Assembly: GCF_000015025.1 (NCBI RefSeq)
Contig: NC_008578.1
Span: 1,320,001-1,352,000 of the forward strand
Length of the DNA stretch: 32,000 nt
Origin: Acidothermus cellulolyticus 11B
Lineage (GTDB): Bacteria > Actinomycetota > Actinomycetes > Acidothermales > Acidothermaceae
Direction of reading: 5' to 3'
Positions 4,979-18,897 of this stretch are shown here, piece after piece. The notes under the pieces are model-generated. The model was not told the origin of the DNA, made no database searches, and saw only the letters and a program-made list of their open reading frames with translations. Every line of letters starts with the position of its first letter. The stretch's first letter is position 1. Made by a program: the position numbers and the translations under genes.

Positions 4979-7900
4979 ATGCGCCTCATCGTCAAGGAGA
5001 CGGTCGGCGAGCTTACCGGCGAGCTGGCTATCCCAAACTCCAAGTACCACGCCCACCGCGCCCTCATCCTCGCCTCGCTGGCAGACGGGACCAGCTACAT
5101 CCACGGCCTGTCGGACGCCGGGCATGTCCGGTACACCATCGGCGCACTCCGCGCCCTCGGCACCCGCATCGACGTCGACGGCAACACCTTCGTCGTCCGC
5201 GGCGGACCCTACCGGCCGCGCCGTGCCGACGTGTCGGTCGGCAGCTCGGGCACAACCCTGTACTTCCTCACCGGGCTCGCCGGGCTCGCCGACGCGCCGG
5301 TGCGGATCGTCGGCCAACGCTACTTTCAGCGCCGCCCGATCCGGCCGCTGCTCGCCGCTCTGCAGGCCCTCGGCATGCAGGTGGGATCGGCCACCGGGTG
5401 CCCGCCCATCGAGGTGCGACCGGGCCGTCCGCGCGGCGGCCGGGTGACGATCGCCGGAACGTTGTCGCAGTGGATTTCGGGGCTGCTCCTTCTGGCGCCG
5501 TTCGCCGCCGCCACCACCGTCATCGAGGTGGACGGCGAACTCAACGAGCGCTCCTACATCGATCTCACCATCCGGATGATGCGGGAGTTCGGCCTCCACG
5601 TCGACGCCGCGCCCGATGGCCGGCGGTTTGAAGTCCCGCCCAACCAGACTCCCCGCCCGGCGACCGTCACGCTGCCGCCGGATGTCGGCGCCGCCGCATT
5701 TGGGCTCGCAGTGACCGCACTGCACCCCTCGGATGTCCTCTTTCGCGGGTTGCCGGCCCTCTCGGCGTCCGAGACTGACCATCCCGAGGCGGATCTGCTC
5801 GACATCGTCGCCGGCATGGGCCTGCCGATGCGGATCGACCCTGACGCCGGCGTGGTCCGGGTCACCCATCACGGGATCGACCTTGCCCCGATCGACGTCG
5901 ACTGCCGCAGCGTGCCGGACATGCTGCCGATCCTCTCGGTGCTCGCCACCTTCGCCAAGGGGCGCAGCAGATTGCGGAATATTGCCCATGTCCGGCTGAA
6001 GGAATCCGACCGCGTCGCGGCCATGCTTCAACTGAACCGCATGGGTGGACGGTTGGAGCAGCGCGGAGACGAGCTCGTGTGCGACGGTGTCGACCGGCTG
6101 GTCGGTGCGGACCTGTCGTCCTTCAATGACCACCGGGTGCTGATGGCGCTTGCGGTGGCGGCGTCCCGCGCCGAGGGCGAGACCCGGCTGACCTACCCAA
6201 ACGCGTATCGCATTTCGTATCCGCGCTTCCTGGATGAAATGAACGGTATTGGCGTGGCGATGTCGGTCGAAGCGGCGCCGGCCCGGACGACGCGGCCCGC
6301 GCCGCGCCGCACCGCATCAACGGTGACACCCGGACGACTGGCCGCCGTACCGATTGACCAGCTTGTCGCGCGATGGGCTCGGCAGCGGCCGGACGAACCC
6401 GCCGTCATCGACATCGGAGTGACCGGTGACGCGGATCGCACCATCACCTGGCGGGAATTCGACGAGCAGGCAAGCGACGTCGCGCTCGCCTTGCTGCGGT
6501 CTGGAGTGGAGCCGGCGGAGCCGGTGGCGTACCAATTGCCGAATTGCGCGGAATTCCCGACGCTGGCATTGGCGGTCGCCCGGATCGGGGCGGTGAGCTG
6601 CCCGTTGATGCCGTTCTACCGCCGGCGGGAAGTCGCGTTCATGCTCACACGCTCCCGCGCCCGTGTTCTTGTCGTGCCCCGATATTTCCGCAACCGCGAT
6701 TATGTCGCGGAAACCCATGCCCTTCTCACCGAAGAACCGGATGTGTCGGTGCGCCGCGTCATCGTGCTGGGACCGGGTCCGGTTCCGGACGGGCCGGCGG
6801 GCGTGCAGTGGCAGACCTTCGACGACTGGGTCGCCGCCGCGCGAACGGACCGTACGGAGCGGGACCGCATTCTCGCGACGCGCCGTCCGGCGCCGGACGC
6901 GCGGGCCCAGCTTCTCTTCACCTCGGGGACGTCCGGGGAACCCAAGGGCGTGCTGCACCGCATGAACACCCTCACCCGCGCGGTCGGCATGGAAATCCGC
7001 CACTTGGGACTCACCAACGCCGACCGCATTTTCGTCCCGTCACCCCTTGCCCACCAAACCGGGTTTCTCTACGGCATGTGGCTCGCCTTCGGGCTCGGCG
7101 TACCGCAGATTCTGCAGCCGGTGTGGGACGGGCGGATCGCTGCAGCGGCCATCCGCCGCCGCCGCGCGACATTCGTGCAGGCCGCGACGCCGTTCCTCGC
7201 GGATTTGGTGAGCGCGGTGGAGGAAAGCGGCGAGCCGCTGGAGAGTCTGCGGATTTTCGTCGCCACCGGTGCCGCGGTGCCGCGGAATCTCGCGGAACGG
7301 GCCACCCGGCTCCTCGGCGCGGCGGTCTGCGGGGCCTGGGGCACAACGGAAACGTGCTTGGGCACGCTCGCTGCGCCCACGGATGAGCCCGCCAAAGTCT
7401 GGGGCACCGACGGCCGGCCGCTTGCCGACATCGCCGTCCGCGTCGTCGATGACCACGGCGAGGAGCTCGCCCGCGGGGTGGAAGGACATTTCGAGGTGAA
7501 GACCCCGTGCCTCTTCGAGGGGTACCTGGACCACCCGGAGTGGACGGCGCAGGCGCTCACCCCAGACGGCTGGTATCGCAGCGGCGACCTCGCGGTCATC
7601 GATGAATCTGGATATGTCCGCATCACCGGGCGGGCCAAGGATGTCATCAACCGCGGCGGCGAGAAGATACCGGTCGCCGAGGTGGAGCAGATTCTGCACA
7701 CCCACCCGGCGATTCGGGACGTCGCGATCGTCGCCATGCCCGACGAGCGGCTGGGCGAACGTGCCTGCGCGTTCGTGGTGCTGCGGCCGGCGGCAACACT
7801 GACGTTTCCGCAGGTGCAGCAGTACCTCGACGAACGTCATGTCGCCAAGCAATACTGGCCGGAGCGGCTGGAGATCATCGATGAACTGCCACGCAACCCG

Positions 7901-7993
7901 AGCGGTAAAATCCAGAAGTTCAAACTCCGCGAGCGGATCGCGGACATTTTGCGCAGCGAGAGCAACCCTGGATCCCTGCGACACGGAAAGTGA
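4979..7993 (+). CDS. Bifunctional fusion: EPSP-synthase-like enolpyruvyl-transferase domain (aa 1-~425) plus ANL-superfamily acyl/aryl-CoA ligase domain (aa ~455-1004)
   Basis: ATG 4979 follows GGGAGGGG. The N-domain carries the AroA blocks IPNSKYHAHRAL, VGSSGTT, RRPIRPL, LSQWISGLL, ERSYIDLT, VPDMLPIL, RLKESDR and NDHRVLMA. The C-domain carries ANL motifs FTSGTSGEPKG (A3), WGTTET (A5), YRSGDLA (A7), GRAKDVINRGGEKI (A8) and PSGKIQK (A10). Confidence 0.85.
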   Translation: MRLIVKETVGELTGELAIPNSKYHAHRALILASLADGTSYIHGLSDAGHVRYTIGALRALGTRIDVDGNTFVVRGGPYRPRRADVSVGSSGTTLYFLTGLAGLADAPVRIVGQRYFQRRPIRPLLAALQALGMQVGSATGCPPIEVRPGRPRGGRVTIAGTLSQWISGLLLLAPFAAATTVIEVDGELNERSYIDLTIRMMREFGLHVDAAPDGRRFEVPPNQTPRPATVTLPPDVGAAAFGLAVTALHPSDVLFRGLPALSASETDHPEADLLDIVAGMGLPMRIDPDAGVVRVTHHGIDLAPIDVDCRSVPDMLPILSVLATFAKGRSRLRNIAHVRLKESDRVAAMLQLNRMGGRLEQRGDELVCDGVDRLVGADLSSFNDHRVLMALAVAASRAEGETRLTYPNAYRISYPRFLDEMNGIGVAMSVEAAPARTTRPAPRRTASTVTPGRLAAVPIDQLVARWARQRPDEPAVIDIGVTGDADRTITWREFDEQASDVALALLRSGVEPAEPVAYQLPNCAEFPTLALAVARIGAVSCPLMPFYRRREVAFMLTRSRARVLVVPRYFRNRDYVAETHALLTEEPDVSVRRVIVLGPGPVPDGPAGVQWQTFDDWVAAARTDRTERDRILATRRPAPDARAQLLFTSGTSGEPKGVLHRMNTLTRAVGMEIRHLGLTNADRIFVPSPLAHQTGFLYGMWLAFGLGVPQILQPVWDGRIAAAAIRRRRATFVQAATPFLADLVSAVEESGEPLESLRIFVATGAAVPRNLAERATRLLGAAVCGAWGTTETCLGTLAAPTDEPAKVWGTDGRPLADIAVRVVDDHGEELARGVEGHFEVKTPCLFEGYLDHPEWTAQALTPDGWYRSGDLAVIDESGYVRITGRAKDVINRGGEKIPVAEVEQILHTHPAIRDVAIVAMPDERLGERACAFVVLRPAATLTFPQVQQYLDERHVAKQYWPERLEIIDELPRNPSGKIQKFKLRERIADILRSESNPGSLRHGK

Positions 7994-17649: not shown

Positions 17650-17658
17650 CGTTACCGT

Positions 17659-18897
17659 GTGATCGACGACGTCGTCGTCACCGGAATCGGCGCAATTACC
17701 CCGGTGGGACTCAGTCGCGAAGCAACCTGGGAAGCCCTCTGCGCCGGGAGATCCGGAGTCGGCCTCATCTCGTCGTTTGACGCGACTTCTCTGCCGGTTC
17801 GGATCGCCGCCGAGGTGCGGGACTTCGACCCGGCAGCGCTGCTCGACGCCAAGCGGCTGCGGCGGACCGCCCGGTTCAGCCAATTCGCCATCGCTGCGGC
17901 ACGCGAAGCTATTCAGGACGCCGACATCACCATCACTACACGGAATTCCGAGCGGATCGGTGTCGTCATCAATGCGGCGGTCGCCGGATTCGACACCGTT
18001 GAGCAGGCCACCCGCCGGTTGGCGGCAAACGCCTCCGCACGGTTGAGCCCGTACTTTGTCGCCTCGTCGTTGACCAACATGCCGGCGTGCGAGGTCGCCA
18101 TGGACCTCGGCATCCACGGTCCCGTCACGGCGAGCGCACTGGCGTGCGCCAGCGGCCTGTACGCCGTCGTCGAGGGTGCGCGATTGATTCGATCCGGCGA
18201 GGCGGATGTCGTCCTCTGCGGGGGGACCGATGCGGCGATCACGCCCGTCATGTTCGCCGGCTTGGCAGCCACCGGAGCGCTCTCCCGCCGGAACGACGAC
18301 CCGGCCGCTGCGAGCCGCCCGTTTGACGCCGACCGGGACGGGTTCGTCTTCGGCGAAGGTGCGGTCGTCCTGGTCCTCGAATCGGCGGAGCACGCTCGAT
18401 CGCGCGGCGCCCGTTGCTACGCGGCGTACGCAGGCGGTTCGCTCACCTGCGATGCATTTCACGTCACTGCGCCGGACCCCAGCGCGGAACACGCCACGGC
18501 GGCCATCAACCAGGCACTGAAGAGCGCTGGAGTCGCGCCGGCCGATGTGGACTACATTTGCGCCCACGGAACCGGGACGAAGGCCAACGACCGGCAGGAG
18601 ACCCGGGCGATCCGGCAGGCGTTCGGCGCGACGGCTGACGAGGTTGCCATCAGCAGTCCGAAGTCGATGGTCGGCCATCTCATCGGTGCCGCCGGTGCCC
18701 TCGGGGCGATGGTCGCTGTGCTGGCCATCCGCGACCAACGGGTGCCACCGACGATCAACTTGGATACCCCGGATCCGGAGTGCGACCTCGACTACGTCCC
18801 GAAGGTTGCGCGCACGATGCTCGTTCACACCGCGATGACGCAGGCATTCGGCTTCGGGGGACAGAACTGCGTAGCCGTCTTCACCCAACCGCGCTGA
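17659..18897 (+). CDS. Beta-ketoacyl synthase, KAS I/II (FabF/FabB-like), stand-alone
   Basis: The Cys-His-His triad context is present (ALACASGLYAV, ICAHGTGTKAND, KSMVGHLIGAAG), with the C-terminal block GFGGQN. 412 aa. It starts 9 nt after the FadH-like gene. No ACP, AT or PKS domains are nearby. Confidence 0.88.
   Translation: MIDDVVVTGIGAITPVGLSREATWEALCAGRSGVGLISSFDATSLPVRIAAEVRDFDPAALLDAKRLRRTARFSQFAIAAAREAIQDADITITTRNSERIGVVINAAVAGFDTVEQATRRLAANASARLSPYFVASSLTNMPACEVAMDLGIHGPVTASALACASGLYAVVEGARLIRSGEADVVLCGGTDAAITPVMFAGLAATGALSRRNDDPAAASRPFDADRDGFVFGEGAVVLVLESAEHARSRGARCYAAYAGGSLTCDAFHVTAPDPSAEHATAAINQALKSAGVAPADVDYICAHGTGTKANDRQETRAIRQAFGATADEVAISSPKSMVGHLIGAAGALGAMVAVLAIRDQRVPPTINLDTPDPECDLDYVPKVARTMLVHTAMTQAFGFGGQNCVAVFTQPR

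Follow-up and report, generated by a model that had tools for sequence, protein, structure and literature searches.

Chemically, omega-cyclohexyl lipids have been known since the 1970s, and the omega-cyclohexyl acids of Alicyclobacillus are said to originate from shikimate (labelling by Oshima and Ariga in 1975; Moore and Floss). A search of the available literature found no description of genes for omega-cyclohexyl fatty acids. A 2026 review of unusual fatty acids cites for these lipids only biochemical and taxonomic work of 1975-2004 (labelling, mutants), and a Sulfobacillus paper, in its available text passages and supplementary files, calls alicyclic-lipid genes "identified" and gives no gene names. 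The closest described gene systems are the Streptomyces cassettes for cyclohexanecarboxyl-CoA (CHC-CoA), which are ansJKL-chcA-ansM (ansatrienin, S. collinus), the plm genes and asuB1-4 (asukamycin). The CHC-CoA genes of phoslactomycin/lactomycin are listed, in order, as plmJK (AMP-dependent synthetase and ligase), plmL (acyl-CoA dehydrogenase), chcA and plmM (NADH:FMN oxidoreductase) (PMC5852498), and the cassette has been used as a portable source of CHC-CoA for doramectin (PMC4581413). In S. nodosus CHC-CoA destined for asukamycin also ends up in omega-cyclohexyl fatty acids, which make up 3.1% of the cellular fatty acids and increase about fivefold in a thioesterase mutant, according to the parts of PMC4147253 that summarize Rui et al. 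(2010). These data indicate that a supply of CHC-CoA and a branched-chain-type type II fatty-acid synthesis are sufficient for omega-cyclohexyl acids. Here a homologous set of genes is described from a 32-kb stretch of the genome of Acidothermus cellulolyticus 11B (the window), a thermo-acidophilic actinobacterium with growth at 37-70 C and pH 4-6 (PMC4585250). The set is located between pafA and pafB and is accompanied by a gene for a FabF-type beta-ketoacyl synthase (KAS) rather than by a polyketide synthase (PKS).

The window encodes the same five catalytic types as the ans, plm and asu cassettes, all of them with intact active-site motifs in Pfam and NCBIfam comparisons: a domain resembling 5-enolpyruvylshikimate-3-phosphate synthase (EPSPS), an ANL ligase, an acyl-CoA dehydrogenase (ACAD) homologue, a ChcA-type short-chain dehydrogenase/reductase (SDR) and a FadH/OYE-type reductase. 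The assignments made in an earlier note from the letters and translations of this DNA were upheld by these comparisons for every enzyme activity. The likeness to plmJK-plmL-chcA-plmM extends to the domain set, the fusion of J with K and the gene order JK-L-chcA-M, which is contiguous in a sister Acidothermus lineage and interrupted by 5.6 kb in 11B. The SDR is 69% identical to Streptomyces proteins (including P0343) named 1-cyclohexenylcarbonyl-CoA reductase by NCBI and UniRef, and the cassette proteins of a PKS-linked Streptomyces locus (L004) are 55-79% identical to those of the window by tblastn; in these respects, together with domain set, order and fusion, the equivalence with the ans, plm and asu cassettes, which the earlier note had put forward, holds. 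Unlike the Streptomyces cassettes, the block has no PKS or assembly line, is linked to the FabF-type KAS instead, lies in the chromosome among housekeeping genes and is interrupted in 11B by three unrelated genes. Domain scans of the whole 32 kb detected no PKS, nonribosomal peptide synthetase (NRPS), carrier protein or second condensing enzyme, in agreement with the first impression that no PKS is present, and the sister locus is also free of PKS, NRPS and carrier protein; at neither locus is the block embedded in a PKS assembly line. The CHC-CoA cassette itself is of an already known kind. What appears to be previously undescribed is its PKS-free, KAS-coupled form, widespread and repeatedly assembled, together with the link to omega-cyclohexyl lipids that is predicted for Acidothermus and for large uncultured soil lineages.

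The product of the first gene, the fusion protein, is 100% identical to an A. cellulolyticus 11B protein. Its EPSPS-like half is about 30% identical to solved class I EPSP synthases and passes the aroA model TIGR01356 marginally (306.8 bits, cut-off 287.25). It was compared with the site of E. coli AroA, which we take from the literature on structure 1G6S to consist of K22, S23, R27, N94, R100, R124, S169/S170/Q171, S197, D313, N336, K340, E341, R344, H385, R386 and K411. The equivalents of K22, R27, R124, Q171, D313, K340, E341, R344, H385 and R386, on the phosphoenolpyruvate (PEP) side and in catalytic positions, are retained. Five other positions are substituted (S23 to Y, N94 to S, R100 to Y, S197 to E and N336 to H), 14 diverse members of the family all carry these replacements, and the domain has an invariant signature of its own (Y23, S89-S90, Y95, E190, H337). 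The replaced residues presumably bind the 3-phosphate or carboxylate of the substrate or belong to the GNAGTAMR motif. The shikimate-3-phosphate and PEP residues of a housekeeping AroA are therefore not conserved as a set and, because the replacements in the site are invariant, the EPSPS-like half represents a distinct subfamily and not a typical AroA. As far as alignment can tell, it is a domain that has kept the PEP-side residues and lost the 3-phosphate-binding residues of the shikimate-3-phosphate site. The best named model for the ligase half is the cyclohexanecarboxylate-CoA ligase TIGR03208, at 523 bits under a cut-off of 792. The fusion has 822 homologues at E<=1e-30, the best 120 of which are 60-70% identical, and clustering at 50% reduces the fused family to about four representatives. 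EPSPS-like proteins (~430-460 aa) and ligases (~530-560 aa) also occur unfused. Across 72,556 plasmids tblastn found no full-length fusion, the matches being to AliA-like ligases alone, which are 40-44% identical to the ligase half.

The distribution of the set was determined in a scan of one genome per species by tblastn and clustering of open reading frames (ORFs). Relatives of the fusion are encoded in at least 578 species-level genomes, and 80 loci were retrieved. They belong to Eremiobacterota (Vulcanimicrobiota/Cybelea), Solirubrobacterales and other uncultured Actinomycetes, Acidimicrobiales, Dormibacteria, Streptomyces, Streptosporangiaceae, Micromonospora, Sinomonas and Microlunatus, and many of the uncultured lineages were recovered from soil and peat metagenomes. 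The genes of the fusion, ACAD, SDR and FadH-like protein are contiguous and co-oriented in 64 of the 80 loci, and most of the others are on truncated contigs. A FabF-type KAS gene directly adjoins the cassette in 43 of the 56 loci with enough flanking sequence to assess it. The co-occurrence across genomes that the earlier note had suggested looking for is thus present; the family, being far from rare, is less exotic than had been assumed. Type I PKS neighbours were identified at two loci, both of them without an adjacent KAS: at L004 the PKS abuts the cassette and was confirmed by Pfam, and L005 has an ORF that falls in its cluster; the scan covered part of the other large ORFs nearby. In the Eremiobacterota loci (L011-L046) a gene for DAHP synthase is divergent from the KAS-fusion-ACAD-SDR-FadH operon, ~7700-8700 upstream of the fusion, which fits a dedicated supply of shikimate. 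The cassette of this phylum is situated within conserved synteny that includes surE, msrA and msrB, and looks like a stable core-genome feature.

The genes that follow the fusion were characterized in the same way. The ACAD homologue, whose catalytic Glu is kept (motif EEGT), is encoded directly 3' of the fusion in most loci, at 65-80% identity by tblastn. In the window the TGA stop of the fusion, which ends at 7993, abuts the GTG start of the ACAD gene at 7994, so that the start coupling described earlier stands. We propose that the homologue acts in the pathway as FAD-dependent dehydratase. The SDR gene is the third core gene in other loci and the FadH-like gene the fourth. B. subtilis FabL (3OIC) is the best PDB match of the SDR, and its first description as a FabL/ChcA-type enzyme is borne out by the NCBIfam and PDB matches to FabL and by the identity to proteins named as ChcA. 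The FadH-like reductase has the CIACNQAC...C motif (CxxCxxxC...C) expected of the 4Fe-4S enzyme that it had been taken for. Judged by these motifs, the ACAD homologue, the SDR, the FadH-like reductase and the KAS all look catalytically complete. The FadH-like protein also carries a local duplication, VVVVGGGRGRVVVVGGGPAG, at about aa 383-402, at the FAD dinucleotide-binding motif.

The KAS shares 43% identity with E. coli FabF and about 52% with Synechocystis FabF. Its identification as a KAS I/II is confirmed by the fabF model and by an intact Cys163/His303/His340 triad; Lys335 and Phe399 are present as well. It resembles FabF (KAS II) in its full length, the triad, Lys335 and the GFGG gate, but its gene is outside a fab operon and its clade travels with the CHC cassette. 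The window KAS carries N-A-A-V-A-G in place of the canonical G-S-G-I-G-G loop (E. coli I108), and in the actinobacterial clade x-A-V-A-G replaces the canonical G-S/T-G-I-G-G; the catalytic residues are kept in all 42 aligned KAS proteins. The closest sampled homologues (63-80% identical) are encoded beside the cassette, in KAS and ligase pairs (L083-L085) or in hybrid clusters (L086, L087); the best matches in the databases, at 67-80% identity, are distributed over these same three settings. Contigs were examined for six top homologues, and neither these nor any cassette-linked copy showed a fabD-fabH-acpP-fabF context. The window contains no acpP, fabD or fabH, so the KAS gene does not have the surroundings of a housekeeping fabF.

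The position of the KAS gene varies among lineages. In Streptomyces it is directly 3' of the FadH-like gene, as in Acidothermus, and the protein is 63-67% identical to that of the window. In Solirubrobacterales and Streptosporangiaceae it is divergently upstream of the cassette (57-69% identical). In Eremiobacterota it is upstream and co-oriented, and is 35-38% identical, although the fusion is 61-64% identical. One Acidimicrobiales locus has a third, canonical-looking FabF (47% identical). Within actinobacteria the divergence of the KAS parallels that of the fusion (57-69% versus 58-70%). This pattern indicates that KAS genes were probably recruited repeatedly and independently, from at least three lineages, beside one cassette. 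As at least three KAS lineages adjoin the same cassette, functional coupling can be argued. The possibility that the cassette of one Acidimicrobiales locus, L009, is linked to a housekeeping fab operon was considered and rejected, the upstream genes being unrelated.

The same KAS clade was found in two other settings. One is a two-gene unit in which a cassette-type KAS gene is followed by a gene for an ANL enzyme resembling long-chain-fatty-acid-CoA ligases (~540-560 aa). The unit occurs away from the cassette, in cassette-bearing or other genomes (L083:8001-10988, L084:8001-10847, L085:9001-11856), and 3' of the cassette in L079, L057, L064 and L066; the Acidothermus KAS has no such ligase. 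The other setting is a hybrid cluster (L086:1-18108 and L087:1-13543, also L027 and L038), which combines the cassette and a KAS 70-71% identical to that of the window. In L086 and L087 the hybrid contains an acyl carrier protein (ACP), an IlvE-like aminotransferase, a stand-alone type-I-like ketosynthase, a 4HBT thioesterase, a condensation domain, a P450 and an A-T didomain. Its product may be a beta-amino-cyclohexyl acyl natural product, and the cluster appears to be undescribed.

A connection with lipids is provided by Alicyclobacillus. Among stand-alone ligases that bear an organism name, the closest belongs to Alicyclobacillus cellulosilyticus, a species for which omega-cyclohexane fatty acids are listed (PMC5023266). 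The locus compared, L094, belongs to a second assembly, the ligase of which shares a >=90% cluster with the A. cellulosilyticus ligase. Its proteins are homologous to those of the window (ligase 47%, ACAD 62%, FadH-like 46% and SDR 44% identical), and its SDR and FadH-like genes are divergent from the ligase and ACAD pair; PKS, KAS and EPSPS-like genes are all absent within 10 kb. Alicyclobacillus and Acidothermus thus have in common that they are thermo-acidophiles with the four homologues clustered without a PKS and with the same predicted product. They differ in that the genes form divergent pairs without an EPSPS-like gene or KAS in Alicyclobacillus, and in that the lipid chemistry is established for Alicyclobacillus, whereas Acidothermus is known from its genes. 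In Herbiconiux solani the cassette consists of five separate genes in the same order, with identities of 44-68% and no PKS, and the description of the genus states that cyclohexyl-C17:0 may occur, a link at the level of the genus only (PMC10011130). These two PKS-free clusters strengthen the lipid interpretation offered by the earlier note. At L094 the ligase and ACAD pair is immediately followed by a gene for an MFS protein of 809 aa that faintly matches an acyltransferase (12955-15384), and a second ACAD paralogue, 62% identical, is found 5.5 kb beyond it.

Gene content, the integrity of the domains, the conserved order, the linkage of the KAS and the homologous clusters in an omega-cyclohexane-lipid producer were observed directly, and from them we infer a pathway in each of its catalytic steps, in its product and in the role of the KAS. 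Shikimate would be thioesterified to shikimoyl-CoA by the ligase half of the fusion. The ACAD homologue would carry out the dehydrations, as conjugate eliminations, and the FadH-like and ChcA-like reductases would reduce the dienoyl- and enoyl-CoA intermediates to CHC-CoA. CHC-CoA would then enter type II fatty-acid synthesis, where the linked KAS would accept or preferentially elongate the bulky alicyclic primer, and the products would be omega-cyclohexyl fatty acids for the membrane of a thermo-acidophile. The entire route, from shikimate through CHC-CoA to omega-cyclohexyl membrane fatty acids in Acidothermus, is given a probability of roughly 60%. The formation of a CHC-type alicyclic acyl-CoA is considerably more certain and can be called highly probable. 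A further-reaching proposal is that the FabF linked to the cassette is a condensing enzyme dedicated to an "alicyclic primer", that it forms with the four CHC-CoA genes a self-contained lipid module in hundreds of uncultured Eremiobacterota, Solirubrobacterales, Acidimicrobiia and other Actinomycetota, and that in Acidothermus this module is co-transcribed with pafA-pafBC. This proposal is tentative and rather doubtful as a whole.

Several observations weigh against the lipid pathway or weaken parts of it. The block has no linked ACP, FabH, FabD or acyltransferase. FabF-type enzymes normally use acyl-ACP and not acyl-CoA primers, for which reason the part given to the KAS is conjectural; a functional precedent is the KAS I/II-class enzyme FabY of Pseudomonas aeruginosa, which initiates from acyl-CoA. 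The presence of the same KAS clade inside the NRPS/PKS-like hybrid clusters L086 and L087 means that this KAS is not diagnostic of lipids. The assignment of the steps follows the title and abstract of a 2020 study by Skyrud, Flores and Zhang (ACS Catal 10:3360), the title of which reportedly names a shikimoyl-CoA synthetase together with an FAD-dependent dehydratase. Likeness to the characterized ChcA/AnsJKLM of S. collinus and PlmJK-M of HK-803 was gauged through named or PKS-linked Streptomyces proteins. Fatty-acid data for Acidothermus were not found in the literature, and the papers that mention both Acidothermus and cyclohexyl are, in the portions available, not about its lipids.

Three other explanations were weighed. 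The KAS might add one or a few C2 units to CHC-CoA, or to a partly reduced or hydroxylated cyclohexene-carboxyl-CoA, to give a small secondary metabolite or another non-membrane molecule, the remaining genes being elsewhere. The hybrid clusters and the KAS and ligase units away from the cassette lend this some weight. In both Acidothermus lineages, however, the block is flanked by housekeeping genes only, the locus has no tailoring enzyme, carrier protein, thioesterase or exporter, the genome is small (2.44 Mb), and PKS-free clusters are present in A. cellulosilyticus, a documented omega-cyclohexane-lipid producer, and in H. solani; a secondary metabolite is for these reasons judged unlikely, though it is the strongest of the alternatives. 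A catabolic route, aerobic or anaerobic, that activates and degrades cyclohexanecarboxylate, shikimate/quinate or related alicyclic acids is much less probable. The ligase and ACAD do share broad families, and action on alicyclic acyl-CoA thioesters, with the aliA, aliB, badK, badH and badI products of Rhodopseudomonas palustris and the bad-ali products of Aromatoleum, and AliA and cyclohexane-1-carbonyl-CoA dehydrogenase are the families of the best named models for the ligase and for one ACAD match, to which the identity with plasmid-borne AliA ligases may be added. Yet the scores are far under the equivalog cut-offs (523 against 792 for TIGR03208, 198 against 650 for NF043006 and 131 against 575 for TIGR03207), and no enoyl-CoA hydratase, hydroxyacyl-CoA dehydrogenase or ring-opening hydrolase (ECH, HADH, BadI-type) is encoded in the window. 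The EPSPS-like fusion, the adjacency of DAHP synthase in Eremiobacterota and that of the condensing enzyme all point to synthesis, the direction predicted here, and Streptomyces uses the homologous cassette biosynthetically.

Least probable of all is an ordinary AroA fused by chance to a FadD, beside an ordinary FadE, FabG, FadH and housekeeping FabF. While it is true that the EPSPS half just passes the aroA model and the KAS the fabF model, the invariant signature of the fusion family alters the shikimate-3-phosphate site, the four-gene order is conserved across phyla and none of the sampled KAS homologues is in a fabD-fabH-acpP-fabF operon; moreover, Streptomyces has a canonical aroA and fab operon besides the cassette and carries the whole set as extra copies.

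If the PKS-free cassette with its KAS is a pathway to lipids, it would be a genetic marker for omega-cyclohexyl lipids, and such lipids would be predicted in Acidothermus and in large uncultured soil lineages, for example Eremiobacterota. The locus would also offer, in compact and thermostable form, the genes for making the doramectin starter unit CHC-CoA, and a test case for the handling of a bulky alicyclic primer by a FabF-type enzyme. Should the further-reaching proposal of a dedicated module be true, ring-terminated membrane lipids would no longer be a curiosity of Alicyclobacillus but a common adaptation, and a biomarker whose genes can be identified, and membrane remodelling in Acidothermus would be tied to the pupylation/DNA-damage regulon.

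In the pafABC operon of Actinobacteria, for instance that of Mycobacterium tuberculosis, pafA is directly followed by pafB and pafC. The window has the usual co-oriented pafA, pafB and pafC and the usual flanks, prcBA and tatAC, but between pafA and pafB there are 8.6 kb (in the sister lineage, known from a metagenome-assembled genome, MAG) or 14.3 kb (in 11B) of genes for lipid/alicyclic biosynthesis. The boundaries first given for this gap, a pafA stop at 4696 and a pafB start at 18978 about 14.3 kb apart, proved correct, and all the coordinates correspond to ORFs of the plus strand. The interval 4697-18977 measures 14,281 bp and contains five biosynthetic genes; the 5.6 kb at 9130-14735 code for no pathway enzyme. 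The features are collected in the table, in which the gene calls of pafB and pafC are taken from environmental contig L090.

Features of the A. cellulolyticus window around the pafA-pafB interval (positions are those of the window; ~, approximate)
Feature	Positions	Strand	Match or remark
dop (partial), pup, prcB, prcA, small ORF	5' of pafA	+	
pafA (Pup-protein ligase), upstream boundary	3338-4696	+	TIGR03686, 757 bits (cut-off 551); Pfam Pup_ligase
PlmJK/AnsJ+AnsK-type fusion	4979-7993	+	EPSP_synthase aa 8-421; AMP-binding and AMP-binding_C aa 464-977
N-terminal EPSP-synthase-like domain of fusion	~5000-6241	+	Pfam
C-terminal ANL ligase of fusion, predicted shikimoyl/alicyclic-acyl-CoA synthetase	~6368-7909	+	Pfam
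AnsL/PlmL-type acyl-CoA-dehydrogenase homologue	7994-9136	+	four ACAD Pfam domains
Secondary insertion interrupting the cassette	9130-14735	.	absent from collinear MAG locus L081
APC-type permease with C-terminal OB fold	9285-~11489	-	Pfam/NCBIfam
KdpD-C-terminal-like histidine kinase	11601-13706	+	Pfam/NCBIfam
KdpE-like response regulator	~13714-14436	+	Pfam/NCBIfam
ChcA-type SDR enoyl-CoA reductase (1-cyclohexenylcarbonyl-CoA reductase type)	14678-15511	+	NCBIfam best FabL
AnsM/PlmM-type FadH-like FMN/4Fe-4S/FAD dienoyl-CoA reductase	15529-17649	+	Oxidored_FMN and Pyr_redox_2
FabF-type beta-ketoacyl synthase	17659-18897	+	TIGR03150, 520.6 bits (cut-off 493.75)
pafB, downstream boundary	18978-19925	+	WYL+WCX
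pafC, downstream boundary	~19928-20917	+	HTH_PafC+WYL+WCX
tatA, tatC, helY, 5'-3' exonuclease, second ACAD, CAP-domain protein, lnt, GT2 glycosyltransferase	3' of pafC, in order	+	

The GC content of the block (0.66-0.70) is similar to that of its flanks, and its nucleotide divergence from the sister lineage is similar to that of neighbouring genes, so there is no sign of recent transfer. The sister lineage is represented by the Acidothermus sp. MAG GCA_019689755.1 (locus L081), which is collinear with the window at 70-82% nucleotide identity in the order prcB, prcA, small gene, pafA, fusion, ACAD, SDR, FadH, KAS, pafB, pafC, tatA, tatC. Its cassette is uninterrupted, the segment 9130-14735 being missing; the environmental contigs L090 and L091 (KAS 98% identical) share the insertion of 11B. 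In the 80 other loci no permease, kinase, regulator or paf genes were found near the cassette, the paf position of which is specific to the genus Acidothermus. As the MAG is collinear with the cassette in the paf locus, entry of the cassette precedes the split of these lineages, and by this comparison the module of permease, kinase and regulator is a later insertion in the 11B lineage. The division into two sub-operons, which the earlier note had called unusual, is a by-product of this insertion and no design feature.

At the edges of the insertion no terminal inverted or direct repeats were found as scars of a mobile element, and alignment of the junctions with the uninterrupted lineage was uninformative. 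At the left edge there are two tandem copies (93% identical, spaced by 48 nt) of a 46-nt GC-rich repeat, 9209-9302, located just 3' of the ACAD stop and spanning the stop codon of the minus-strand permease gene. The OB fold at the C-terminus of the permease, a tRNA_anti-codon domain, is unusual. The kinase consists of DUF4118, HisKA and HATPase_c without the KdpD/Usp N-terminal domains, and no kdpFABC is nearby.

The position between pafA and pafBC is a curiosity, which raises the question of co-transcription of the paf genes across an insert of 9-14 kb. A scan for promoters and terminators at 4400-19200 gave no excess over shuffled controls and nothing at the gene junctions. A regulatory RNA or riboswitch 5' of the fusion was considered and rejected, there being no Rfam match in the window at gathering thresholds. 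The 282-nt spacer between pafA and the fusion contains a tandem repeat of ~23 nt (ccgacccttcgccggcgtccaag, ~2 copies) at ~4826-4870, which is also without an Rfam match. From the KAS stop to the pafB start there are 80 nt in 11B (18897-18978) and 8 nt in L081 (11305-11314), and the short gap of the sister lineage suggests read-through transcription from the KAS gene into pafBC.

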